In this document: positions 9,725-20,958 of the stretch, in pieces
Layout of the letters: each line of letters opens with the position of its first letter
Numbering within the stretch: position 1 is the first letter of the stretch
Assembly: GCA_031372565.1 (NCBI GenBank)
Contig: JANMLN010000192.1
Coordinates: 1-64,000 of the forward strand
Direction: 5' to 3'
Source: Gemmatimonadota bacterium
Lineage (GTDB): Bacteria; Gemmatimonadota; Gemmatimonadetes; Gemmatimonadales; Gemmatimonadaceae
DNA length: 64,000 nucleotides
Notes under the pieces: model-generated
The model's input: the letters and a program-made list of their open reading frames with translations, nothing else
Databases searched by the model: none
What the model was told of the DNA's origin: nothing
Position numbers and translations under genes: made by a program

Positions 9725-11818
9725 ATGAGCACTATCGGCGGCGGCGAAAGTACCGCGCTCTCGCGCGAACTCGCCGACTTCCTGATCGAGTTCTCGATCG
9801 CGTTGCACAAGAACGCGATCTACCCTGCGGGCCATCCGCTCCTGTCGCAGGCGGTGCGCGGGCTGCTGTCGCGCATGGGGGCGTTGCTCAAGGAAGAGCG
9901 GGCGACGCTGTCGATCGGCGTTGCCCGCCGCCAGCTCATCATCGAAGGGGTCGCGACCGACCCGAACCATCCGCTGCTGCGTGAGCTCGCCCAGCGGCTG
10001 CATCGGCACCAGCTCGGCGCCGTGCGCTTCTCGGCCGGCATCACCAACGACGAGCTGAGCGATTTCCTCGCGACGGTGGCCGTGGATGCGTCGCGGATGG
10101 AGCTGCCGCTGGGGCTCGGCGATCCCGAAGTGCTCCAGCAGTGGCCGCACGCGCGGCTCTTTCCGCTGACATTCGAGCAGCTCGAACTGCTCGATGACGA
10201 CGGCAGCGAGGACGACGACGATCTGGACGGACGGAGCGCGGGCGGCGCGCGCTCGGCCGCGCTCTGGATCGGCCTCGCGCGCGCGGCACTGGCCAAGGAA
10301 GTGGCCAGCGATGAGGAGCTGCCGAGCACCGACCCTGTGGTCGTGGCACAGGCGATCGACGACCACGGCAAGGACGTGGCGTACGACCAGGTGGTGGTGG
10401 GCTACCTGCTGCAGATCGCCGAGGAGCTCAAGAGCAAGCAGGGGAAGGAAGCGGCGGCGCTGCAGAAACGCATTTCGCGCCTGGTGGCATCACTCAACCC
10501 GGCCACGCTGCAGCGGTTGATGGACATGAGCGGCGACACGGTGCAGCGGAACAAGTTCGTGCTGAACGCCACGGCCGGGATGTCGGTGGACGCGGTGGTG
10601 GACATCGTGCAGGCGGCGGCGGACACCTCGCGGCAGACGATCTCGCACTCGATGATGCGCTTGCTCACCAAGTTCGCGGCGCATGCGGAAATGGGGCAGG
10701 ACGTGGTGCGTCCGCAGATGGACGAGGCGCTGCGCGAGCACGTGCAGCGGCTGATCGGCGAGTGGTCGCTGGACGACCCCAATCCGGATGCGTACCGGGT
10801 GGCGCTCGAGGGGATGGCCAAGGCGTCGCCGATGTTCTCGGGGGTCGACCGGTATCCCGCGGAACCGCGGCGCATGGTGGCGATGTCGCTCGAGGTGCAG
10901 AGCGCGGGTGATGCCGTCTGGCGCGCCGTGGACGGCCTGACGCAGAACGGCGAGTTGGGCGTGGTCTTCGATCTGGCCGATCAGGCGCTGGAGAGCTATG
11001 CGCGCGACTCGATGCTCGAGTACATCGCGACCCCCGAGCGGCTGCACGCGCTGCTGGCGGCGGACAGCTTCGACCTGCCCCTGCTGGAGCGCGTGGTGAC
11101 GCGCCTCAAGCACGCGGCGGTGGAGCCGTTGCTCGACACACTCGAGATCGCGGACGATCGCAAGGCGGGCGCGCTGGTGGAGCTGCTGGCCTCGGTCGGC
11201 ATGGAGGCGGCGTCAACGATTCTGGTCCGGCTTCCCCTCTCGCGCTGGACGACGCAGCGGTTGCTGCTCGTGACCATTGCCCGGTTGCCGGTGTGGCCGG
11301 ACGGGTTCACGCCGCTGGACTATGCGCGGCATCCCGATGCACCGGTGCGGCGCGAAGCGCAGCGGATGATGTTCAAGGAGCCGATCCTGCGCGACGAAGG
11401 GATCAAGATCGGGCTGCTGGATGGCGACGAGCGCAACGTGTCGAATGCGCTGGGCGCTGCGGCGCGCGGCTGTCCGCCGGATGCGGTGCGCATCGTGATG
11501 GAGCGGATCGACGACAACTCGCTGTCCGAAGCGATCAAGCCGCTGGCGGTCAAGGTGGCGGCGAGCACGCGGAGTCCGTCGCTGCTGCCGTGGCTGCTGG
11601 CGCGCGTGGAGGGCAAGAAAGGGCTGTTCGGCCGCCGCCTGGCCGAGACGACCCCGCTGATGCTGGCCAGCCTCGAGGCCATCGCGCAGTTCTACGCCGA
11701 TCGTCCCGATACGGCCGACGTGCTGGCGCTGGCGTCCAAGTCGCGCGACGACGAGGTTCGTACAGCCATGACGCGCCGTGCGTCGGTGGCCATGCGCGCG
11801 ATCCAGGACCCGACATGA
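9725..11818 (+). CDS. Hypothetical helical (HEAT-repeat-like) protein
   Basis: GGAG RBS; long GC3-rich ORF; N-terminal YPAGHP domain; C-terminal repeats such as HPDAPVRREA and DGDERNVSNAL. Confidence 0.75.
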   Translation: MSTIGGGESTALSRELADFLIEFSIALHKNAIYPAGHPLLSQAVRGLLSRMGALLKEERATLSIGVARRQLIIEGVATDPNHPLLRELAQRLHRHQLGAVRFSAGITNDELSDFLATVAVDASRMELPLGLGDPEVLQQWPHARLFPLTFEQLELLDDDGSEDDDDLDGRSAGGARSAALWIGLARAALAKEVASDEELPSTDPVVVAQAIDDHGKDVAYDQVVVGYLLQIAEELKSKQGKEAAALQKRISRLVASLNPATLQRLMDMSGDTVQRNKFVLNATAGMSVDAVVDIVQAAADTSRQTISHSMMRLLTKFAAHAEMGQDVVRPQMDEALREHVQRLIGEWSLDDPNPDAYRVALEGMAKASPMFSGVDRYPAEPRRMVAMSLEVQSAGDAVWRAVDGLTQNGELGVVFDLADQALESYARDSMLEYIATPERLHALLAADSFDLPLLERVVTRLKHAAVEPLLDTLEIADDRKAGALVELLASVGMEAASTILVRLPLSRWTTQRLLLVTIARLPVWPDGFTPLDYARHPDAPVRREAQRMMFKEPILRDEGIKIGLLDGDERNVSNALGAAARGCPPDAVRIVMERIDDNSLSEAIKPLAVKVAASTRSPSLLPWLLARVEGKKGLFGRRLAETTPLMLASLEAIAQFYADRPDTADVLALASKSRDDEVRTAMTRRASVAMRAIQDPT

Positions 11819-13083
11819 CCCCGGCCGCGATCTTTCTCACGAACTTTGCGCAGGCGCTGAGCACGATGGTGCTCTACCGCGACGGGCATCCGGCACGCGA
11901 GCGTGCAACGGACAAGGCGTACGGGCGGCTGCGCGACCTCCAGTCCAAGGACGTGAAGCCGCTCTTCTCGTTCCTCGGCAACGAGGTCGTGTACGGCAAC
12001 GTCTCGATGCGGGAGTTGACGGACTGGGACTGGGGGACGCGGCTCGCCAATGCCGGGATCCAGCGGCTCGAGTTCGAGCCGGACGTGACGCGCGAGGATT
12101 TCGAGTATTTCCTCAGCGACGTGCTGGCGCGGCTCACGATGCAGGCGATCGACACGGCGGGAACGCGCACGGAGCGGCGTACCGGGATCAAGTTCGGCGC
12201 GATTGGCGTGCGGGGCGAGCAGGGGACGCTCAAGCCCGAGTCGCAGATGCTGCCGACCGCCACGATTGCCTACACGCTGGGCGAGGAAGCGGAGACGATC
12301 CGCTGGATGCACGACGAGGTGATGACCAAGGGGGAACTGCCGCTCATGGAAGCGGAGACCGTCGTGCGGTCACTCTCCATGGCGATGCACGGCGACAACC
12401 AGATCGTCATTCCGCTCCTGCAGCTGCGCGAGTTCGACGAGTACACCACGACGCATTCGCTCAACGTCTCGGTGCTGAGCATGGCGCTTGCCGAGTTCAT
12501 GGGGATGGGCGCCAAGGACGTGCGCTCCTTTGGCGTGGCCGGGCTGCTGCACGACCTCGGCAAGGTGCGTATCCCCAAGGACATCCTGAACAAGCCGGGC
12601 AAGCTGTCGGACGCGGAGTTCGCGGTCATGCGCCGACACCCGGTGGATGGCGCCAAGATCATCGTGGAGAGCGACCGGCAGCTGGACATCGCGGCGATCG
12701 TCGCCTACGAGCACCACATCATGCTCAACGGCGGCGGCTACCCCAGCATGCGGTTCCGCCGCGACACGCATCAGGCGAGCAAGATCGTGCATGTCTGCGA
12801 TGTGTATGACGCGTTGCGCACCAACCGTCCGTATCGCGAGGCGTGGGACGCGGAACGCGTCGTGAGCCATATCCAGAAGGGCGCGGGGCACGACTTCGAC
12901 CCCGACGTGGTCAAGGCGTTCACCGGGATGATCAACACCTGGGAGAAGCGCGTGGCGGTGGTCGACGAGAGCATGGAGCTCAAGGCGCCGTCGGCGGATC
13001 CGCACGCGGACCGCCAGCCGATCGCGCCGGGGGCGGCGCCACCGGTGCTCGCGCCGCCACCGCCGCCTCCCCATTCTTCCTGA
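11815..13083 (+). CDS. HD-GYP domain cyclic-dinucleotide phosphodiesterase
   Basis: ATGA overlap; DEYTTTHS, LLHDLGK, ILNKPGKL, EHHIMLNGGGYP, DVYDAL..RPYR motifs. Confidence 0.9.
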   Translation: MTPAAIFLTNFAQALSTMVLYRDGHPARERATDKAYGRLRDLQSKDVKPLFSFLGNEVVYGNVSMRELTDWDWGTRLANAGIQRLEFEPDVTREDFEYFLSDVLARLTMQAIDTAGTRTERRTGIKFGAIGVRGEQGTLKPESQMLPTATIAYTLGEEAETIRWMHDEVMTKGELPLMEAETVVRSLSMAMHGDNQIVIPLLQLREFDEYTTTHSLNVSVLSMALAEFMGMGAKDVRSFGVAGLLHDLGKVRIPKDILNKPGKLSDAEFAVMRRHPVDGAKIIVESDRQLDIAAIVAYEHHIMLNGGGYPSMRFRRDTHQASKIVHVCDVYDALRTNRPYREAWDAERVVSHIQKGAGHDFDPDVVKAFTGMINTWEKRVAVVDESMELKAPSADPHADRQPIAPGAAPPVLAPPPPPPHSS

Positions 13084-13141: not shown

Positions 13142-13717
13142 ATGGCCAATCACGCAAACGACAAGAAGGGCGCCGCCGCTGTCGACGCCGAGCCGACCCC
13201 CGAAAGTCTCGACGCCGTGCGGGATATCCTCTTCGGTGGCCAGATGCGGACCGTCGAGACGCGCCTGCGCAACATCGAGGACCGGTTCCAGCAGGAGTTG
13301 GAATCGCTGCGCGGCGAGTTCCAGAAGCGCGCGGCCGAACTCGACCAGTTCGCGAAGAAGGAGACGCAGGCGCTGCACGAACGGGTCGCGGCCGAGAACG
13401 ATGCGCGCGTACAATCGCTGCGCGAACTGGCGGGCGAAGTGAAGGACGCCTTCAAGCAGGCGAACCAGCGGCATGTCGCGCTCGAGCAGAGCACCTCGCT
13501 GTCCGATGCCGAGCTCCGCGATCAGCTCATCGCCCAGGCCAAGGCCGCCGCCGCCGAACTCAACCGGATTCACGAGAAGCTCTCGGCCGAGCTCGCCAAG
13601 TCGCACGCCGATCTCTCGCACGCGAAAACCGACCGCAGCCAGATTGCGGCGTTGCTCGGCGAGATGGCACAGCACATCGCGAACAACGCCGGCACGCCCA
13701 AGGGTCAGAAGGGTTAG
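13142..13717 (+). CDS. Coiled-coil hypothetical protein
   Basis: LDAVRDILFG start motif, E/K/Q/L-rich heptad-like body, KTDRSQIAALLGEMA end; 3 nt upstream of the OmpA gene. Confidence 0.8.
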   Translation: MANHANDKKGAAAVDAEPTPESLDAVRDILFGGQMRTVETRLRNIEDRFQQELESLRGEFQKRAAELDQFAKKETQALHERVAAENDARVQSLRELAGEVKDAFKQANQRHVALEQSTSLSDAELRDQLIAQAKAAAAELNRIHEKLSAELAKSHADLSHAKTDRSQIAALLGEMAQHIANNAGTPKGQKG

Positions 13718-13720
13718 CGG

Positions 13721-15634
13721 ATGGCTGATGTGACCGCGGCGTCGCGCGCGAGCGACGTGCCCCGCGGCACGGGCGCGGAGGCCACACTCACGCCACCGAG
13801 TGTGCCACTCGTGGACGGCGCACCGGTGCCGCTCGCGCCGTCGGCAGCGGCTGGGTCAGCCACACCGGCCGCCGACCCGCGCACCGTCGAGCTCGCCGAG
13901 CTTCGCCGATTGTTGTTGGGCGCAGAGCAGGCGCGACTCGACGAGCACGACCGGCGCATCCGCGACAACGAAATGAGTCCCGAGCACCTGGCATCACGAC
14001 TGCCCGAGGCCATCGTGCTGCGCGCAGGTCAGGACAAGCAGCTCGCGCGCGCGCTCGCGCCCACCGTGGAAGCGGCCATCAGCGAGTCGGTGCGGCGGAA
14101 GCCGGGTGAATTCGCCGACGCGATCTTCCCCGTGCTCGGTCCCGCCATCCGGAAGGCGATCGCGGAGACGATGGCCGAGTTGGTGGGGTCGATCAACCGG
14201 GCGATGCAGCACTCGTTCTCGGCGCGCGGGCTCTCGTGGCGCATCGAGTCCTGGCGCACCGGTGTGCCGTATGCACAGGTGGTCATCAAGCATGCGCTTG
14301 TCTATCGCGTCGAGCAGGTGTTCCTGGTGCACCGCGAAACGGGGCTCCTCCTCGCGCAGGCGCATCCGCCGCACCTGGAGGTGCCCGACGCCGATCTCGT
14401 GAGCGGCATGCTCACGGCCATCCGCGATTTCGTGGGCGATTCATTTGCCGGCGAGAAAGAGGTGGGCGGGCTGCGCACGTTCAGCGTGGGCGAGCTGACC
14501 GTGATGGTGGAGCAGGGACCACGCGCGCTGCTCGCGGCGGTCGTGCGCGGGCAAGCGCCGGAGTCGTACGTGCGTCGGTTACAGGAGACGATCGAAGGGG
14601 TACACGCGCAGTTTGCGAGTGTGCTCGCGGACTTCGACGGCGATACAGCGCAGTTCGGCCCGGTGCAGCCGTTGCTCGAGGATTGCCTCGTGACCGTGCT
14701 CGCGACCGATGCACCGGCGGGCACGAAGGTGAACACGACGCCGTATCTGATTGCGCTTGGTGCCGTGGTCGTGCTCACGCTGGCGTGGAGCACCTGGCAG
14801 ACGATGCGCTGGTCGCGCGTGATCGGTGCCTTGCGCGCGACGCCGGGGATCGTGGTCATGGAATCACAGCGCGGGTGGCGGACGCACACCGTGCGCGGGC
14901 TGCGCGATCCGGATGCGATCCCGCCCAATGCGTTGTTCGCGTCGGCCGGCTACGACAGTGTGCGCGTCGAGCAGCAGTGGGAACCGTACCTCTCCCTGGA
15001 ACCGTCGCTAGTGTTGAAGCGTGTGCAACGTCGACTCGGCGCTCCGCAGCCCGGCACCCCCACGTACTCGCTTCGCGGCGACACGGTGGTGGTGGGTGGT
15101 GCGATCGATGCGGCGTGGTTGGCGCGGGTGGCGCGGCGTACCGGTTGGCCGGCGGGGGTGGCGACCGCGGACGTTCGCTCGGCGGAGCCGATCGTGCCGG
15201 CGTCGCTTGCCGCGGTCGCCGACTCGATGACGTCGGTGCGGGTGCTCTTTGCGGCAGGGTCATCGGAACTGGACGGCGCGGCGCGGTCCGCCATACGCAG
15301 TGCGGCGCGACAGGCGCGACAGGTGGCCGTGGCGCTGGCCGCCGATGGTGTGGTCGCCACGGTGACACTGGCCGGTCGCGCCGACGTGACCGGGACCGAG
15401 GCGACCAATGCAGCGCTCAGTCGCGAGCGCGCCGACCGCGTTCGTGGCGCGCTGGATGCCGCACTGCGCGACGGCGCGGCCAAGGGGCCGGTCGTCCGCT
15501 TCGATCCGCGAGGACTCGGGACCGCCGAGCCGATCGCCGCCGGCGATTCCGTGGCTCGCGCTCGGCTGAATCGCAGCGTATCGTTTGGCATTCGCCTCGT
15601 GATCGACGCCCTGTCCGGAGCCCGGCCGCAATGA
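13721..15634 (+). CDS. Membrane-anchored OmpA-family protein with a cytoplasmic longin/roadblock-like domain
   Basis: Single TM segment (YLIALGAVVVLTLAW); C-terminal VLFAAGSSEL..GRAD..N..LSRERA..V..GLG..P..NRSV OmpA-like motif; N-terminal VFLVHRETGLLL..DLVSGMLTAIRDF. Confidence 0.85.
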   Translation: MADVTAASRASDVPRGTGAEATLTPPSVPLVDGAPVPLAPSAAAGSATPAADPRTVELAELRRLLLGAEQARLDEHDRRIRDNEMSPEHLASRLPEAIVLRAGQDKQLARALAPTVEAAISESVRRKPGEFADAIFPVLGPAIRKAIAETMAELVGSINRAMQHSFSARGLSWRIESWRTGVPYAQVVIKHALVYRVEQVFLVHRETGLLLAQAHPPHLEVPDADLVSGMLTAIRDFVGDSFAGEKEVGGLRTFSVGELTVMVEQGPRALLAAVVRGQAPESYVRRLQETIEGVHAQFASVLADFDGDTAQFGPVQPLLEDCLVTVLATDAPAGTKVNTTPYLIALGAVVVLTLAWSTWQTMRWSRVIGALRATPGIVVMESQRGWRTHTVRGLRDPDAIPPNALFASAGYDSVRVEQQWEPYLSLEPSLVLKRVQRRLGAPQPGTPTYSLRGDTVVVGGAIDAAWLARVARRTGWPAGVATADVRSAEPIVPASLAAVADSMTSVRVLFAAGSSELDGAARSAIRSAARQARQVAVALAADGVVATVTLAGRADVTGTEATNAALSRERADRVRGALDAALRDGAAKGPVVRFDPRGLGTAEPIAAGDSVARARLNRSVSFGIRLVIDALSGARPQ

Positions 15635-16137
15635 TCCAGAAGAAAGTGTGCATGGTCGGGGTCTTCGGCACCGGCAAGACCAGCCTCGTGCAGCAGTACG
15701 TGCACACGAAGTTCACCGACAAGTACCACAGCACGGTGGGGGTCAAGATTGACCGCAAGGTCGTGAACGTCGACGGCACCGATATCACGCTCGTCCTGTG
15801 GGATCTGGCGGGCCGCGACCCGCAGCAGGATGTGGGCTCGAGCTACCTCAAGGGGGCGCACGGCGTGATCTACGTGGGCGACGGGACACGCCGCGAGACG
15901 GTGTCGGAGCTGGACGACTTGCTCCGCGTGGCGACCGCGGCGGCCGGGCCCGTGCCAAGCGTGACAGCGATCAACAAGATCGACCTCACGGAGCAGTGGG
16001 CACTCACCCCCGAGGACTATCAGGCGCTGGTCAAGCGCGGCGGGCTGTTCCGCACGAGCGCCAAGACGGGTGAAGGGGTGGAGGCGATGTTCCTGCAACT
16101 GGCACGCTTCCTCACGGTACCGAAGGCGGGCGCATGA
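15631..16137 (+). CDS. Rab/Ras-like small GTPase (168 aa)
   Basis: ATGA overlap; G1 GVFGTGKT, G2 YHSTVGV, G3 WDLAG, G4 NKID, G5 TSAK. Confidence 0.93.
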   Translation: MIQKKVCMVGVFGTGKTSLVQQYVHTKFTDKYHSTVGVKIDRKVVNVDGTDITLVLWDLAGRDPQQDVGSSYLKGAHGVIYVGDGTRRETVSELDDLLRVATAAAGPVPSVTAINKIDLTEQWALTPEDYQALVKRGGLFRTSAKTGEGVEAMFLQLARFLTVPKAGA

Positions 16138-16964
16138 GCGCGATCTTCAGCGGCGGCATCGACGTCTTCGGTCTGTCGGACGTCGGTCGGAAGCGTACGC
16201 GCAACGAGGATCACTTCGTGATCGCGACGTTGCGCAAGGAGATCCTGCTGCGGCAGAGCAATCTCGCGGACACCTCGGTGTTTGACGCGGCGCGTGGTGT
16301 CGAGGCGCAGCTGTTGGCGGTGGCTGATGGCGTGGGCGGGCAGGCCGGCGGGGACGTGGCGAGTCGCACGGCCGTGACCGCGCTCGTGGGGTACCTGAAT
16401 ACCACGATGACCTGCTTCAACAATCTCGACGTGGATGCGGAGCACGAGTTTCTGGAGAAGCTCGAGGCCGGCGTGCACGCGGCACACCAGCAGGTGCGCG
16501 ACGCGCACGGCCGCGACAGCCGCCCGCCGGCGACCACACTCACGATGATCACGCTGCTCTGGCCGCGCGCGTATGTGGTGCATGTGGGCGATAGCCGGGC
16601 GATGTACTTGCACAACGGGTGGCTGCGTCCGCTGACGCGCGACCAGACGATGGGCGAGGCCATGGTCGATGCCGGTGCGATGACCGAGGAGCAGGCCGCG
16701 CGGTCGTCGCTCTCGCAGACGCTGTACAGTGCGTTGGGCGCACAGGACATGTTGCCGAGCGTGGGGCTCGTGGACTTTGCGGCGGGCGACGTGCTGCTGA
16801 TGTGTTCGGATGGCCTGACCAAGCACGTGAACGATACGCGGATCAGTGAAGTGCTGAGCCAGCCGTGGACCGCGGAGATGATGACGAAGACGCTGGTGCA
16901 GGACGCGCTCGAGGGTGGGGGCAGCGATAACGTGACGGTGATCGTGGCGCGGATGATCGGGTAG
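16134..16964 (+). CDS. PP2C-family Ser/Thr protein phosphatase
   Basis: ATGA overlap; DVGRKRTRNEDH, VADGVGG, HVGDSR, CSDGL and GGSDNVT motifs. Confidence 0.93.
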   Translation: MSAIFSGGIDVFGLSDVGRKRTRNEDHFVIATLRKEILLRQSNLADTSVFDAARGVEAQLLAVADGVGGQAGGDVASRTAVTALVGYLNTTMTCFNNLDVDAEHEFLEKLEAGVHAAHQQVRDAHGRDSRPPATTLTMITLLWPRAYVVHVGDSRAMYLHNGWLRPLTRDQTMGEAMVDAGAMTEEQAARSSLSQTLYSALGAQDMLPSVGLVDFAAGDVLLMCSDGLTKHVNDTRISEVLSQPWTAEMMTKTLVQDALEGGGSDNVTVIVARMIG

Positions 16965-16990: not shown

Positions 16991-17015
16991 AACTTGCACA
17001 AGAGGTGTGCAAGTT
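16991..17015. promoter_or_regulatory. Perfect 10-bp inverted repeat (terminator or operator) upstream of the VIT-ECF operon
   Basis: AACTTGCACA-agagg-TGTGCAAGTT followed by TT, in an AT-rich intergenic stretch. Confidence 0.5.
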
Positions 17016-17067
17016 TTCGATCGACCGACGTCTCCTTGGCGTCCCACCAACCCAAGGAGTTCGTCCC

Positions 17068-19311
17068 ATGCGTACATCCGTTCTCACCCTCGCGCTGGCC
17101 GGCGCGTCCCTCGCTCCGCTCGCCGCACGCCACGCCGACGCGCAGGGCATTGTCATCGATCGTCCGCCGTCGTGCGGTCCCACCCAGAACTGCGGTTTCG
17201 TACCCGGAGTGCCGCAGGTCGAGCGCGCCTCCAGCACGGTGCGCATCGACCTGGTCAACGGGGTCGCGCGCTACGAAGTCACCGAGACGTTCATCAATCG
17301 CGGCGGTCGCGTCGGCGAAGCCGACTACCTCTACCCGATGCCCAAGGGCGCCGCGTTCCAGGACCTCAAGCTCTCGATCAACGGCGAGCTGGTCAGCGGC
17401 GAAACGATGAACGCCCAGCAGGCCCGCCAGATCTACGAGCAGATCGTGGCCAAGCAGCGTGACCCCGCGCTCGTGGAATGGATGGGCTATGGCCTGCTCC
17501 GCACGCGCATCTTCCCGATCGCACCCGGTGAAGAGAAGAAAGTCGTCGTGCGCTTCTCGCAGGTGGCCGAACGCGAGGGCGATGCGCTGCGGCTCGACTA
17601 CTTCCGCGGGCCCACGACCAACGGGCCGCGGGAACGCTCCAACGCCGCACCGACCGGCCGCATGCGCTTCGTGCTGTCGTACAGCAACGACGCCCCGTAC
17701 GGCCGTCCCTACTCGCCGACGCACGACGTGAATCCGCGACGCGAAGGCGACAAGCAGGTGGTGGACATCGAAGGCGGCGCGCGCGAACTCACGGTCCTGC
17801 TCCCGGTGCGCACCGCCCGCGACGCCGCGATTGCCATGTTGCCGCAGGCCGAAGGTGGCGACGGCCGCTATGCCCTCGTGACGCTCACGCCCCCCGTCAT
17901 GAACGCGCGTCGCACCCCGCGCGACATGACGTTCGTGATCGACATCTCGGGCTCGATGAGCGGGCGAAAGCTCGAACAGGCCAAGGCGGCCGGCCGCCAG
18001 CTGCTGGCCACGCTCGGCGAGGGGGACCGGTTCCGCATCGTGCCGTTCGCCAGTGATGTGCGATCGTTCCGCGATGGTTGGAGCGATGCCACCAGGGATG
18101 AATTAGGGGCAGCACGCAACTATATCGATGGCCTCGAAGTGGCGGGCGGCACCAACATCATCGGCGCGCTCCGCGAAGCCACCCGGCTGCCCAGTGCGGA
18201 CGGACGGCTGCCGATCGTCATCTTCATGACCGACGGTGCGCCCTCCGTGGGCGAGCAGCGGCCTGCCGTGATCGCCGACTCGGCGCGCGCATGGCGCGGT
18301 GGTCGTCGTATGTTCACCTTCGGGCTCGGGAGTGATGTCAACGTGTCGCTGCTCGAGCAACTCGCCCTCTCCGGGCGGGGTACCGCACAGTTCGCGCGTC
18401 CAGAGGAGGATGTCGAGCGCATGGTCGGGATCACCGCGAGCCGCCTGATGGCGCCGATCGTCACCGACCTCCGCATCCATGCGGAGGGGGTGCGACTGCT
18501 GCGCACCATGCCGCAGGACGCGCAGGATCTCTTTGCGGGCCAGGACCTCGTGGTGCTCACGCAGTACGAAGGGACCGGGCGCGGTACGATCGTGTTCGAG
18601 GGGCGTACGTCGAGCGGCCCCGTGCGGTGGACGCAGAACGTGAACTTCCCGGACCGCGAGACGGGCAACGCCTTCGTGCCACGCCTCTGGGCCACGCAGC
18701 GGATAGGCTGGTTGGCAGCGGAGAAGCGCCGCACCAACACGACCGAGCTCGACAGCGAGATCCGCGGCCTCGGCGAGAAGTTCGGCATCCCGACCGAGTT
18801 CACCTCGTACCTGGTGCTCGAGCCCGGCATGGTTGCCAACCAGCCCGGCCTCATGGGCGACGTCCGTCGGGAAACGGTGAACCGCGTCGGCGCTGGCGCC
18901 GCTGCGGCAGCCGCTCCCGCGATGGGAGCCGAGTCGCGGTTCGACATGGCGAAGGCGGCATCGGCGCAGCGCGCGACCAAGAGCCTGGCCGCACTCGACG
19001 ACGCGTCGAACAGCATGGGCAGCGCAGACAAGAAGATGCGCTCGGGCTCGGGCCGCACCTTCGTGCTGCAGGGCGACAGCTGGACCGACACGCGCTATCG
19101 CCGCGATGCGAAGCTGGCCGTCATCAAGGTGAAGGGCTACGGCGAAGCGTACTTCGCCCTGCTCCGCGCGCTCCCGCAGCTCAAGGACGCGTTTGCGCTC
19201 GGTGACAAGGTGACCATCGTCGGAAAGGGACTCGTGCTCGAGGTGGCCCCCGATGGGGCGGCCGTGCTCGTCAGCGCGGATCTCGACCGGGTGCGCAAGG
19301 CCATCGAGTGA
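17068..19311 (+). CDS. Exported VIT and vWA domain protein
   Basis: AAGGAG RBS; signal peptide ending ADA-Q; VIT-like EVTETFIN..EADYLYPMP..RDPALVEW; MIDAS DISGS, GGTNI, MTDG; TEFTSYLV. Confidence 0.9.
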   Translation: MRTSVLTLALAGASLAPLAARHADAQGIVIDRPPSCGPTQNCGFVPGVPQVERASSTVRIDLVNGVARYEVTETFINRGGRVGEADYLYPMPKGAAFQDLKLSINGELVSGETMNAQQARQIYEQIVAKQRDPALVEWMGYGLLRTRIFPIAPGEEKKVVVRFSQVAEREGDALRLDYFRGPTTNGPRERSNAAPTGRMRFVLSYSNDAPYGRPYSPTHDVNPRREGDKQVVDIEGGARELTVLLPVRTARDAAIAMLPQAEGGDGRYALVTLTPPVMNARRTPRDMTFVIDISGSMSGRKLEQAKAAGRQLLATLGEGDRFRIVPFASDVRSFRDGWSDATRDELGAARNYIDGLEVAGGTNIIGALREATRLPSADGRLPIVIFMTDGAPSVGEQRPAVIADSARAWRGGRRMFTFGLGSDVNVSLLEQLALSGRGTAQFARPEEDVERMVGITASRLMAPIVTDLRIHAEGVRLLRTMPQDAQDLFAGQDLVVLTQYEGTGRGTIVFEGRTSSGPVRWTQNVNFPDRETGNAFVPRLWATQRIGWLAAEKRRTNTTELDSEIRGLGEKFGIPTEFTSYLVLEPGMVANQPGLMGDVRRETVNRVGAGAAAAAAPAMGAESRFDMAKAASAQRATKSLAALDDASNSMGSADKKMRSGSGRTFVLQGDSWTDTRYRRDAKLAVIKVKGYGEAYFALLRALPQLKDAFALGDKVTIVGKGLVLEVAPDGAAVLVSADLDRVRKAIE

Positions 19312-19826
19312 GTGCTGACGTCGAGCGTCTGTTCAAGACCTATCACGTGACGCTCGTGCGGTACCTGACGCGGCGTCTGGGCGATCGCGACTGGGCGGAG
19401 GAAGTGGCTCAGGAAACGTTCGTCCGGGCGCTGCGACAGGAGACCATCATGAATGAACGCGCCTGGATCTTTGCCGTGGCGACCAATCTCGTGCGCGATG
19501 AGGCTCGCAAGGATGCGCGGCGGCGGCGTCACCTCGAGCTGCTCCGCGCAGAAGCCGAGCAGGATGCTGAACCGGAACCCGAAGGCCTATCGGCTGAACG
19601 CGCCGAGGAAGCGGCGATGGCGCGCACGGCGCTCGACGCACTGGCTGAACGCGACCGGAACGCATTGTTGATGAAGGAAGAAGGGCTCGACTATCACGAG
19701 ATTGCCGCGGCGCTCGATCTGTCGTTCGGGAGCGTGGGCACCACGCTGGCCCGTGCGCGCCGCAGGCTCGCCGAAGCGTACGAAGCGCTCCAACGCGAAG
19801 GAGGACGCGGCCATGCCGCCAGTTGA
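19308..19826 (+). CDS. ECF RNA polymerase sigma factor
   Basis: GTGA overlap; AEEVAQETFVRA, AWIFAVATNL, GLDYHEIAAAL..SVGTTLARARRRL. Confidence 0.93.
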   Translation: MSADVERLFKTYHVTLVRYLTRRLGDRDWAEEVAQETFVRALRQETIMNERAWIFAVATNLVRDEARKDARRRRHLELLRAEAEQDAEPEPEGLSAERAEEAAMARTALDALAERDRNALLMKEEGLDYHEIAAALDLSFGSVGTTLARARRRLAEAYEALQREGGRGHAAS

Positions 19827-20958
19827 TGAGGGGATGATCCACGCCTGGCTCGACGGCGCCCTGAGCGCCGATGAGGCCGCGCGGATCGAAGCGCTGGTGG
19901 CGAGCGATCCCGCGTGGAGCGCAGCGGCCGCCGAAGCGCGCGGTCTGATGGCCGCGAGTTCGCGCATTCTGTCGTCGCTTGATGCGGTGCCGGCCAACGT
20001 GCTGCCTGCCTCGATTCCCACCGTGCGTGCAGCGCACGAAGCGCCACGCGTGACAGCAACGCCAAGGGTGACGACGCGTCGGTGGCGCACGCCACAGTGG
20101 GCAGCCGCGGCCACCCTTGTGATGGCCGTTGGCGCCGGCGTCTTGTGGCGCAGCACGCCGGAAGCGGAGCGGCCAGCGGTCGCGATCGCCACCGACGCGT
20201 CCAAGAGCGCTCCCGGCGCATCGGTCGCACCGGCCGCGTCGACCGCGCCAGTCGCGCCAGTCGCGCCAGCCACACCGAGCGTTGCCGCGCCCGCCGCTGG
20301 CCGTGCGAACGCGACGGAGCTCGCGAAGCTGGAGCAACGCGAAGCTCCCGCGGCAGTGGCGACGCGCGGTACGGCATCACCTGTGGCCGCGGCACCGAGC
20401 ATGCCCACCGAGGCGATCGCTCGTTCAGTACCCGAACCCGCCGCAAAGGCAGCCATGGCCGAGGCGGTGGCGGACGAGCGGGCAGAGAATGCGGTCGCGC
20501 TCACGGCGCGGGCACGCCGTACCGACGCGCCGATGGCCGCACGTGCGATGGCTGCCCCGGCTGCCGCAGCTACGATGGGTGCCATGGACGCGGCGGGTGC
20601 GAGCCAGTCGGTACGCGTGGTCACCCCCGTGTGCTGGACCGTGCGGTTGAGCGGCTGGACCCCACCGCCAACTTTCGTGGCACCGATCGGCGTCCTGCTG
20701 GACTCGACGCGCGCTGGCTCGGCACGCGAGGCGGTCGCGCTTATTGGGGGGGAGGCCCCGCCCGCCGCCAAGGGGCAGTGGACCGAGACGGCCGATTCGC
20801 TCCGCGTGACGGTTGATCGCGTGGTGCTGGGTTACACGCTGCGCGTGGCAATGGCGCGCAGCACGATGGCGGGCCGTGCTGCACTCGGCGACGCGGCGAC
20901 ACCGCTCAAGGCCACCGCCACGGCGACGATGCTGCCGTCGCGGTGCGCGGTGCCGTAG
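19813..20958 (+). CDS. Putative anti-sigma factor (single TM, Ala/Pro-rich linker)
   Basis: Overlaps the sigma gene; GGAGG RBS; DEGMIHAWLDGAL anti-sigma-domain-like N-terminus; WAAAATLVMAVGAGVLW TM segment. Confidence 0.8.
   Translation: MPPVDEGMIHAWLDGALSADEAARIEALVASDPAWSAAAAEARGLMAASSRILSSLDAVPANVLPASIPTVRAAHEAPRVTATPRVTTRRWRTPQWAAAATLVMAVGAGVLWRSTPEAERPAVAIATDASKSAPGASVAPAASTAPVAPVAPATPSVAAPAAGRANATELAKLEQREAPAAVATRGTASPVAAAPSMPTEAIARSVPEPAAKAAMAEAVADERAENAVALTARARRTDAPMAARAMAAPAAAATMGAMDAAGASQSVRVVTPVCWTVRLSGWTPPPTFVAPIGVLLDSTRAGSAREAVALIGGEAPPAAKGQWTETADSLRVTVDRVVLGYTLRVAMARSTMAGRAALGDAATPLKATATATMLPSRCAVP

Follow-up and report, generated by a model that had tools for sequence, protein, structure and literature searches.

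A predicted longin/roadblock-fold domain in the membrane component of a Gemmatimonadota Rup GTPase cassette, a candidate platform for the coupled GTPase

Introduction

We analyzed a 64,000-nucleotide (nt) stretch of DNA from a Gemmatimonadota bacterium (positions 1 to 64,000 of contig JANMLN010000192.1, GenBank assembly GCA_031372565.1), hereafter called the window. Four genes on the + strand of the window abut or overlap one another and encode a coiled-coil protein, a membrane protein of 637 amino acids (aa), a Ras-family GTPase and a PP2C-type phosphatase. The question raised by this locus is what the cytoplasmic part of the membrane protein does beside the GTPase. An earlier note, made from the sequence alone, had marked 14303–14689 (+) as a longin/roadblock-like domain and a candidate regulator of the GTPase. 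This segment corresponds to residues 195–323, lies in the frame of the open reading frame at 13721–15634, and contains the peptides exactly as the note had quoted them. Here we report that the domain has a predicted longin/roadblock fold, and that the segment is probably the core of a platform within the Rup1 membrane component that would dock and regulate the translationally coupled GTPase.

Structure prediction and fold assignment

Residues 85–345 of the membrane protein were modelled with AlphaFold2, using an alignment with 121 diverse relatives (122 family members in total). The model had a mean predicted local distance difference test (pLDDT) score of 85.7 and a predicted template modelling score of 0.62, with ten-residue blocks across the domain at pLDDT 91–98. 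DSSP assigned strands at residues 193–204, 210–214, 253–256, 259–265 and 269–277, and helices at 224–241, 281–303 and 309–320. The modelled topology, b-b-a-b-b-b-a-a, is the longin order b1-b2-a1-b3-b4-b5-a2-a3. The earlier note had read a beta-beta-alpha-beta-beta-beta-alpha pattern ahead of the transmembrane helix; the model bears this out and adds a second C-terminal helix.

The structure search that the earlier note had proposed as a check was run with two programs. Foldseek returned 19 matches in the PDB at E ≤ 1e-3, with MglB first (E 2e-4, prob 1.00), followed by Asgard Roadblock3, Ragulator, TRAPP Bet5/Trs23, Mon1-Ccz1, CPLANE and AP sigma subunits. The VIA-align scan, which is independent of Foldseek, covered 48,161 PDB chains, and unrelated models typically reach Z 7–8 in it. 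Fifty-nine chains matched at Z ≥ 8, and the top 50 entries, with Z from 13.3 to 8.1, were all of the longin/roadblock type by title, in agreement with Foldseek. Matches are given below with Z, number of aligned residues and root-mean-square deviation.

Fuzzy (CPLANE): Z 13.3, 125 aligned, 3.0
VAMP7 longin: Z 12.8, 118 aligned, 2.3
Sec22: Z 12.4, 123 aligned, 3.0
TRAPP: Z 11.9, 128 aligned, 3.5
MglB 3t1r_A: Z 11.8, 108 aligned, 2.4
Asgard Roadblock3: Z 11.7, 103 aligned, 2.3
Mon1-Ccz1: Z 11.4, 118 aligned, 2.9

Further matches included MglB 6hjm_A (Z 10.9), the Streptomyces roadblock protein 3kye_A (Z 10.6), Asgard roadblock proteins (Z 9.5–11.7) and Ykt6 (Z 9.8). The longin matches reached through both C-terminal helices (to model residue ~242–248), and the roadblock matches ended near 220. 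The span of the longin matches makes the topology longin-like; the longin and roadblock folds are close relatives and are treated together here.

Alpha/beta sandwich folds are alike in secondary-structure pattern, and the sequence gives no family assignment, both of which would fit a small-molecule sensor of the PAS/GAF/profilin type that had been mistaken for a longin. We consider such a mistake very improbable. No PAS or GAF entry was found among the top 50 structural matches, and the same modelling and search, applied to a genuine PAS-like domain from this system (N-terminal in the usual output proteins, described below), gave only PAS/LOV/phytochrome entries in its top 50 (best Z 10.1). 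This control indicates that the method separates similar alpha/beta folds and that the longin/roadblock call is not a default answer. The assignment of a longin/roadblock fold to residues 193–320 is therefore supported at the level of the model, in the sense of "has the fold of" and not of proven family membership.

Architecture of the membrane protein

The membrane protein comprises, in order, a variable N-terminus, a conserved helical region, the predicted longin/roadblock-fold domain, a transmembrane helix, a periplasmic linker and an OmpA-like domain. Its gene and parts are as follows.

13721–15634, + strand: membrane protein, 637 aa; starts 3 nt past the stop of the coiled-coil gene
13973–14296, + strand: conserved helical region, residues 85–192; six helices in the model, pLDDT 56–91
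14297–14680, + strand: predicted longin/roadblock-fold domain, residues 193–320 (AlphaFold2 model and structure searches)
14729–14794, + strand: single transmembrane helix, ~residues 337–358 (crude hydropathy scan; one segment, starting at 337)
15233–15586, + strand: OmpA-like peptidoglycan-binding domain, ~residues 505–622 (Pfam OmpA, E 1.4e-5, 25.8 bits vs a cut-off of 27.2)

Residues ~1–55 are Ala/Pro-rich and lie outside the part matched in relatives, which starts at ~residue 88. The cytoplasmic region (~88–325) is strongly conserved: in a library clustered at 50% identity it matched 4,588 cluster representatives at E ≤ 1e-3, of which 1,622 reached E ≤ 1e-30, with matches spanning query positions ~2–240. 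The 14303–14689 segment is not a chance open reading frame. The helical region is as conserved as the longin-fold domain, with an invariant P137 and near-invariant G140-P141-A142-I143-R144, N159, W173, R174, E176 and R179-T180-G181; the VIA-align scan barely covered it.

A hydrophobic segment was found right behind the cytoplasmic domain in 125 of 150 family representatives by hydropathy scan. The same kind of scan detected no N-terminal hydrophobic signal in the 637-aa protein, which together with the one transmembrane helix leaves N-in/C-out as the only sensible topology. The C-terminus also gave partial NCBIfam YiaD/YfiB/Pal matches. Against PDB sequences, the family profile matched Rv0899, PA0833, YiaD, YfiB and Pal at E 4e-13 to 1e-8. 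Pfam OmpA was present at E ≤ 1e-3 in 46 of 70 scanned family representatives, four of which also had BON.

The periplasmic linker (residues ~360–500) is conserved. Longer relatives of ~880–916 aa (P0146, P0151, P0211 and P0213) carry BON domains, and one protein (P0289) has a duplicated periplasmic linker module between the transmembrane helix and the OmpA domain.

The Rup GTPase and its gene linkage

The other three genes of the cassette are the following.

13142–13717, + strand: coiled-coil protein, 191 aa, gene 1; weak coiled-coil-type Pfam matches below cut-off
15631–16137, + strand: Rup1-type Ras-superfamily small GTPase, 168 aa; PF00071 (E 6.4e-27), TIGR00231 (E 5.7e-18)
16134–16964, + strand: PP2C-type Ser/Thr phosphatase, 276 aa, gene 4; PF13672 (E 4.8e-15), NCBIfam Stp1/IreP (E 4.4e-48, below cut-off)

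ATGA overlaps join the genes at two junctions, membrane protein/GTPase and GTPase/PP2C. The system occurs once in the genome. The G + C content of the window was 0.66–0.72, and the nearest homologues carry Gemmatimonadota names.

This gene order is known. Wuichet and Sogaard-Andersen defined the Group 1 Rup GTPases, which lack the G3 glutamine, and described a neighbourhood consisting of a coiled-coil cytoplasmic protein, a protein with an "Unc" domain, a transmembrane helix and OmpA, and an output protein (GGDEF/EAL or histidine kinase) (2014, PMC4316618; this and the other sources are cited for those of their parts that fell within our scope). The 191-aa coiled-coil gene is the counterpart of the predicted coiled-coil cytoplasmic protein in these neighbourhoods. 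The earlier note had described the locus as a eukaryote-like arrangement in a bacterium. The cassette is indeed present, but it is not new, being the Group 1 Rup neighbourhood of 2014. Gemmatimonadetes are not named among the Group 1 Rup taxa in sections 16–18 of that paper, and the part covered states that no Group 1 Rup member had been characterised at the time. In a preprint (10.1101/2024.02.28.582541), bacterial Rup1 clusters with eukaryotic Rab/Ras/Rho/Ran and Asgard RasL.

The GTPase carries G1 (GVFGTGKT), the switch-I Thr (T35), G3 (WDLAG, followed by R in place of Gln), G4 (NKID) and G5 (SAK). Related GTPases share GxxxxGKT, the switch-I Thr, WDxxG, NKxD, SAK and an invariant DGTR. The residue after DxxG in 69 of them was E in 28, R in 15, A in 7, Q in 7, K in 5, D in 3, T in 2, N in 1 and S in 1. 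Lacking the catalytic Gln (DLAGR), the GTPase should depend on a partner.

A scan of one genome per species gave 590 confirmed relatives, and 80 loci, selected by the OmpA-type gene, were kept. They span Gemmatimonadota, Acidobacteriota, Desulfomonile relatives, Dehalococcoidia, Nostoc and other cyanobacteria, Nitrospira, Thiolinea, Verrucomicrobiales, Phycisphaeraceae and others. A coiled-coil homologue was directly upstream of the OmpA-type gene in 75 of the 80 loci, and a GTPase homologue was present in 70. The GTPase start was at most 200 nt from the stop of the OmpA-type gene in 67 of the 72 loci that had at least 560 nt of room, and the two genes overlapped by 4 nt in 25 of 69 GTPase-bearing loci.

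A search for Rosetta-stone fusions among longer proteins that contain the GTPase gave 39 matches at E ≤ 1e-20. The apparent OmpA+Ras and Ras+PP2C "fusions" among them were single-sequence clusters and were rejected as artefacts of frameshift or read-through; among five examined, P0269, P0288 and P0267 looked garbled or out of frame, and P0274 and P0289 were plain read-through junctions. No fusion with the coil or the GTPase was found among 264 family proteins. Proteins of ~315–360 aa (P0270, P0272, P0277, P0279–P0282 and others) combine TIR_2 (PF13676) with a GTPase 40–51% identical to the Rup GTPase; they form a separate fused family, possibly related to defence.

Output proteins and the PP2C variant

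The GTPase gene is followed in most related loci by one for an output protein whose N-terminal domain, of ~130 aa, is unannotated; in most other lineages the output types are histidine kinase, cyclase, HD-GYP and sigma-54 activator. The invariant Gln in this N-terminal part has been speculated to act in trans as the residue of a GTPase-activating protein (GAP) (PMC4316618). The "invariant-Gln" domain (for example L022:7126–7575, L037:6470–6940 and L074:7144–7640) modelled as a PAS fold plus a long helix (pLDDT 86.9), with the near-invariant Gln (alignment Q118) in the long helix and ThkA PAS as the best match (Z 10.1). It had also been considered as a second roadblock domain in a heterodimeric platform, an idea that was rejected on the basis of this PAS-plus-helix model. 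A hidden Markov model (HMM) of the output domain, built from 22 related loci, matched 49 of the 69 GTPase-bearing loci.

In the cassette studied here, the PP2C takes the output gene position. Its DG(V)GG, GDSR, SDG and DN motifs are visible, and it looks catalytically intact. A PP2C gene was directly downstream of the GTPase in 16 of the 69 GTPase-bearing loci, all in the Gemmatimonadota-type group. The residue after DxxG, which is the Ras Gln61 position, was Arg or Lys in all 16 PP2C loci; in the 49 output-domain loci it was E in 27, A in 7, Q in 7, D in 3, T in 2, and K, N and S in 1 each. The Arg/Lys state arose once on the tree, so it is a lineage trait that may reflect plain ancestry, and not a demonstrated correlation with PP2C.

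Conserved residues of the domain

Near-invariant residues of the domain were R196, E198, H204, G208, S228, D236, D240, G266-P267, R276-G277, P280, E292 and H295. Conservation was strongest in the b1-b2 hairpin (H204-x-x-T/S-G208), in helix a1 (S228...D236, D240) and at the end of b5 (R276-G277). Of 69 loci, 67 retain R276 and 63 retain R196. Among candidate surfaces, the b1-b2 hairpin, helix a1 (D236, D240) and R276-G277 are the most conserved.

In longin GAPs of the FLCN, NPRL2 and SMCR8 type, a GP motif at the b1-b2 loop or the start of b2 lies beside an arginine finger (PMC12290439). The domain here has a near-invariant arginine, R276, at the end of b5.

Proposed role and competing explanations

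From the observed fold prediction, membrane/OmpA architecture, gene linkage and conservation, we propose the following model. The 637-aa protein would sit N-in in the inner membrane, with its OmpA-like domain gripping the peptidoglycan in the periplasm. Probably dimeric, the longin/roadblock-fold domain would dock the translationally coupled Rup GTPase, hold it at the membrane/envelope and set its nucleotide state, and the GTPase switch would then act on the output protein, here the PP2C. We infer that the domain binds the GTPase and dimerises, and that the periplasmic part senses something. Docking of the GTPase is proposed because this fold does so in MglB, Ragulator, TRAPP, Mon1-Ccz1, CPLANE, FLCN and SRX, and longin and roadblock dimers have been described as GTPase platforms, guanine nucleotide exchange factors (GEFs) or GAPs (PMC3747258; PMC10933270; PMC12290439).

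That the domain binds the GTPase at all seems to us rather probable. Given binding, an exchange factor and an activator would be roughly equally likely, and a passive anchor less so. We lean slightly towards an exchange factor (receptor logic), because the GAP function has been proposed for the output Gln (PMC4316618). The GEF/GAP reading rests on the precedent of the fold and on the very tight gene linkage. Its most specific form, a membrane-integral longin-type GEF or GAP of a Ras/Rab-like GTPase that is controlled from the periplasm by a peptidoglycan-bound ectodomain, is tentative and, in our estimate, less probable than its negation.

The domain may instead act as a passive anchor or effector, which would bind the GTPase, perhaps in its GTP form only, and tether it without catalysing exchange or hydrolysis. 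The SRX domain with SR-beta is a comparable anchor, and Ragulator is a comparable scaffold. SRX and Ragulator chains were also among the structural matches (6frk_y, Z 10.0; 2zl1_B, 10.1; 5ck3_A, 8.5), and the GTPase alignment showed no C-terminal lipidation-type motif, so that an anchor would be needed. By comparison with PMC12290439, the domain showed none of the motifs described for catalytic longins. However, the near-invariant polar residues R196, E198, H204, D236, D240, R276, E292 and H295 seem to be more than a scaffold needs, and a GTPase without its own catalytic Gln must have some partner that aids hydrolysis. We consider a purely passive role unlikely.

The gene linkage also bears on whether the domain is a GTPase platform in the first place. 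It might dimerise, transmit a signal across the membrane, or bind the coiled-coil or output protein, with the GTPase regulated elsewhere. The membrane-protein gene is accompanied by the coiled-coil gene even more regularly than by the GTPase gene (75/80 vs 70/80 loci), and the conserved helical region (85–192) is an equally good candidate surface. Set against this, the fold pairs with a GTPase in every studied case covered (PMC3747258; PMC10933270), and the adjacency of the GTPase gene with its frequent 4-nt overlaps points to co-translation and a stoichiometric partnership. A role apart from the GTPase is thus, in our view, a still weaker candidate than a passive anchor, and docking and regulation of the GTPase remains our preferred reading.

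Several observations weigh against this preferred reading. The fold is a prediction, and a shared fold by itself shows no function. At the sequence level, Pfam gave no family for the domain at E ≤ 10, including Roadblock and the longin families (Longin, Fuz_longin), and none for the cytoplasmic part of 70 relatives; a PDB sequence search with the domain gave no match. Pfam Robl_LC7 (PF03259) matched four other places in the same genome and not the domain itself (C185:14297–14680). Profile–profile comparison by hhalign with 15 MglB-like proteins from related Gemmatimonadota genomes gave E 0.16 and a probability of 0.4%. The GP motif of longin GAPs is absent, the b1-b2 loop here being H-x-x-T/S-G-L (G kept, no P). 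The output-domain HMM had no match in the 64-kb window or in the own genome (95.85% complete); with the Gln-donating output domain absent, the published idea of a GAP in trans cannot apply as stated in this lineage. Co-variation of the GTPase residue after DxxG with domain positions 204, 205 and 235 was likewise considered and is not evidence: in the raw tables a GTPase Q accompanied loss of H204 in 5 of 7 loci and R235 in 6 of 7, but the GTPase trait changed only 1–2 times on the tree, leaving 1–2 independent pairs (sign test p = 1).

Relation to other roadblock and longin proteins

The four Robl_LC7 matches elsewhere in the genome indicate that the organism also has classical roadblock proteins. 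Canonical MglB-like Robl_LC7 genes are located at C194:22458–22724, C175:8454–8717 and C15:19079–19668, and two of the four are in tandem. The earlier note had found the segment to resemble archaeal longin-like proteins. This likeness is weakly supported: in the Protein Atlas language-model look-up, where 0.9 is the threshold for a lead, the leads scored 0.77–0.84, one of them (0.77) being an Asgard "Roadblock/LAMTOR2" cluster with Fuz_longin_1 in 22% of its members.

Stand-alone versions of the domain were sought among proteins of 78–249 aa, and the 49 matches look like pieces of the same family. They had high identity at partial coverage, were mostly single-sequence clusters, included three named "partial" and several OmpA, and had no Pfam family. 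As pieces of the family, they provide no bridge to known small roadblock or longin proteins.

Comparison with known systems

The cassette shares with the Group 1 Rup neighbourhood, in the same order, the coiled-coil gene, the gene for an unknown domain, a transmembrane helix and OmpA, and a GTPase without the G3 glutamine. It differs in that the domain was left there as "Unc" without a Pfam match (PMC4316618), whereas a longin/roadblock fold is assigned here, and in that the fourth gene there encodes an output enzyme with the invariant-Gln N-terminal domain, whereas here it encodes a PP2C.

As in MglA/MglB, in which MglB is a roadblock GAP acting on a bacterial Ras-like GTPase, a cognate small GTPase is encoded alongside, and the domain matches MglB structurally. 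The match is limited to model residues 111–220, and longin domains are the better fit for the two C-terminal helices. There is no sequence similarity; MglB is small and soluble, whereas the domain here is fused to a transmembrane helix and a peptidoglycan anchor, and the GTPase is of the Rup type and not of the MglA type. The best structural matches (model residues 112–242, Z 13.3–10) were eukaryotic and Asgard longins, namely Fuzzy/Inturned (CPLANE), Mon1-Ccz1, TRAPP, VAMP7/Sec22/Ykt6 and AP sigma/mu. These have no detectable sequence relationship with the domain, which is bacterial and membrane-integral with a periplasmic cell-wall anchor. Longin GEFs are typically heterodimers, whereas a homodimer would be needed here. 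In the account of PMC10933270, roadblock proteins abound in archaea but occur sporadically among bacteria, and archaea are taken to be the source of the roadblock/longin families.

The actinobacterial conservon (CvnA-D; Mfp) likewise encodes a membrane sensor, a roadblock-fold protein and a small GTPase as one signalling unit. An analogy between the conservon and Group 1 Rup was also drawn in PMC4316618, and a Roadblock/LC7 fold has been reported for MfpD (PMC13015309). The conservon differs in having a histidine kinase sensor and a separate roadblock protein, whereas here the domain lies within the membrane protein, and its GTPase belongs to MglA group 2, whereas the one here is a Rup.

With MotB/TssL/ArfA-type proteins, the membrane protein shares a cytoplasmic N-terminus, one transmembrane helix and a periplasmic OmpA-like domain, and the family profile matched Rv0899 (ArfA), MotB, PomB and TssL chains. 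We know of no MotB/TssL/ArfA-type protein with a longin/roadblock-fold cytoplasmic domain or a Ras-like GTPase partner.

No published fold assignment for the Unc domain was found (subscription journals lie outside this scope), nor was an experimental study of the cassette or any Rup-named literature from 2015 on. One paper considered in this connection, Kaur et al. 2020 (PMC7159879), is unrelated to the Rup cassette in the part covered. As far as the searches reach, the cassette itself has been known since 2014, and the domain fold and the PP2C variant appear to be new within the literature covered.

Neighbouring genes

The HD-GYP-type and 697-aa proteins encoded upstream (9725–13083) were considered as cassette members and rejected, being kept only in the closest locus (L001). 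The 697-aa protein has no Pfam family and a homologue in 1 of the 80 related loci (L001). The HD-GYP-type protein (PF13487, E 1.7e-21) matched in 8 of the 80 loci, seven of the matches being downstream output proteins of other lineages. The two proteins showed no mutual similarity when compared. Downstream of the cassette, 17005–20958 contains a VIT + VWA protein (PF08487, E 8.6e-21; PF13768, E 6.2e-20), followed by a candidate extracytoplasmic function (ECF) sigma factor at 19308–19826 and then a possible anti-sigma protein, both recognised by eye.

Biological significance

The domain represents a very large bacterial family with a predicted longin/roadblock fold, fused to a transmembrane helix and a cell-wall anchor and encoded beside the bacterial GTPases that cluster with Ras/Rab/Rho/Ran. 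If binding and regulation of the GTPase by the domain are borne out, the orphan Rup1 system would gain a mechanism. It would then offer a simple bacterial model for receptor-coupled small-GTPase signalling and a new data point on the age of the longin/roadblock–GTPase partnership. Should the more specific proposal of a periplasm-controlled GEF or GAP also hold, thousands of lineages in many phyla would have a bacterial receptor-to-GEF-to-Ras pathway, and the pairing of a longin fold with a Ras-like GTPase would not be an archaeal or eukaryotic speciality.

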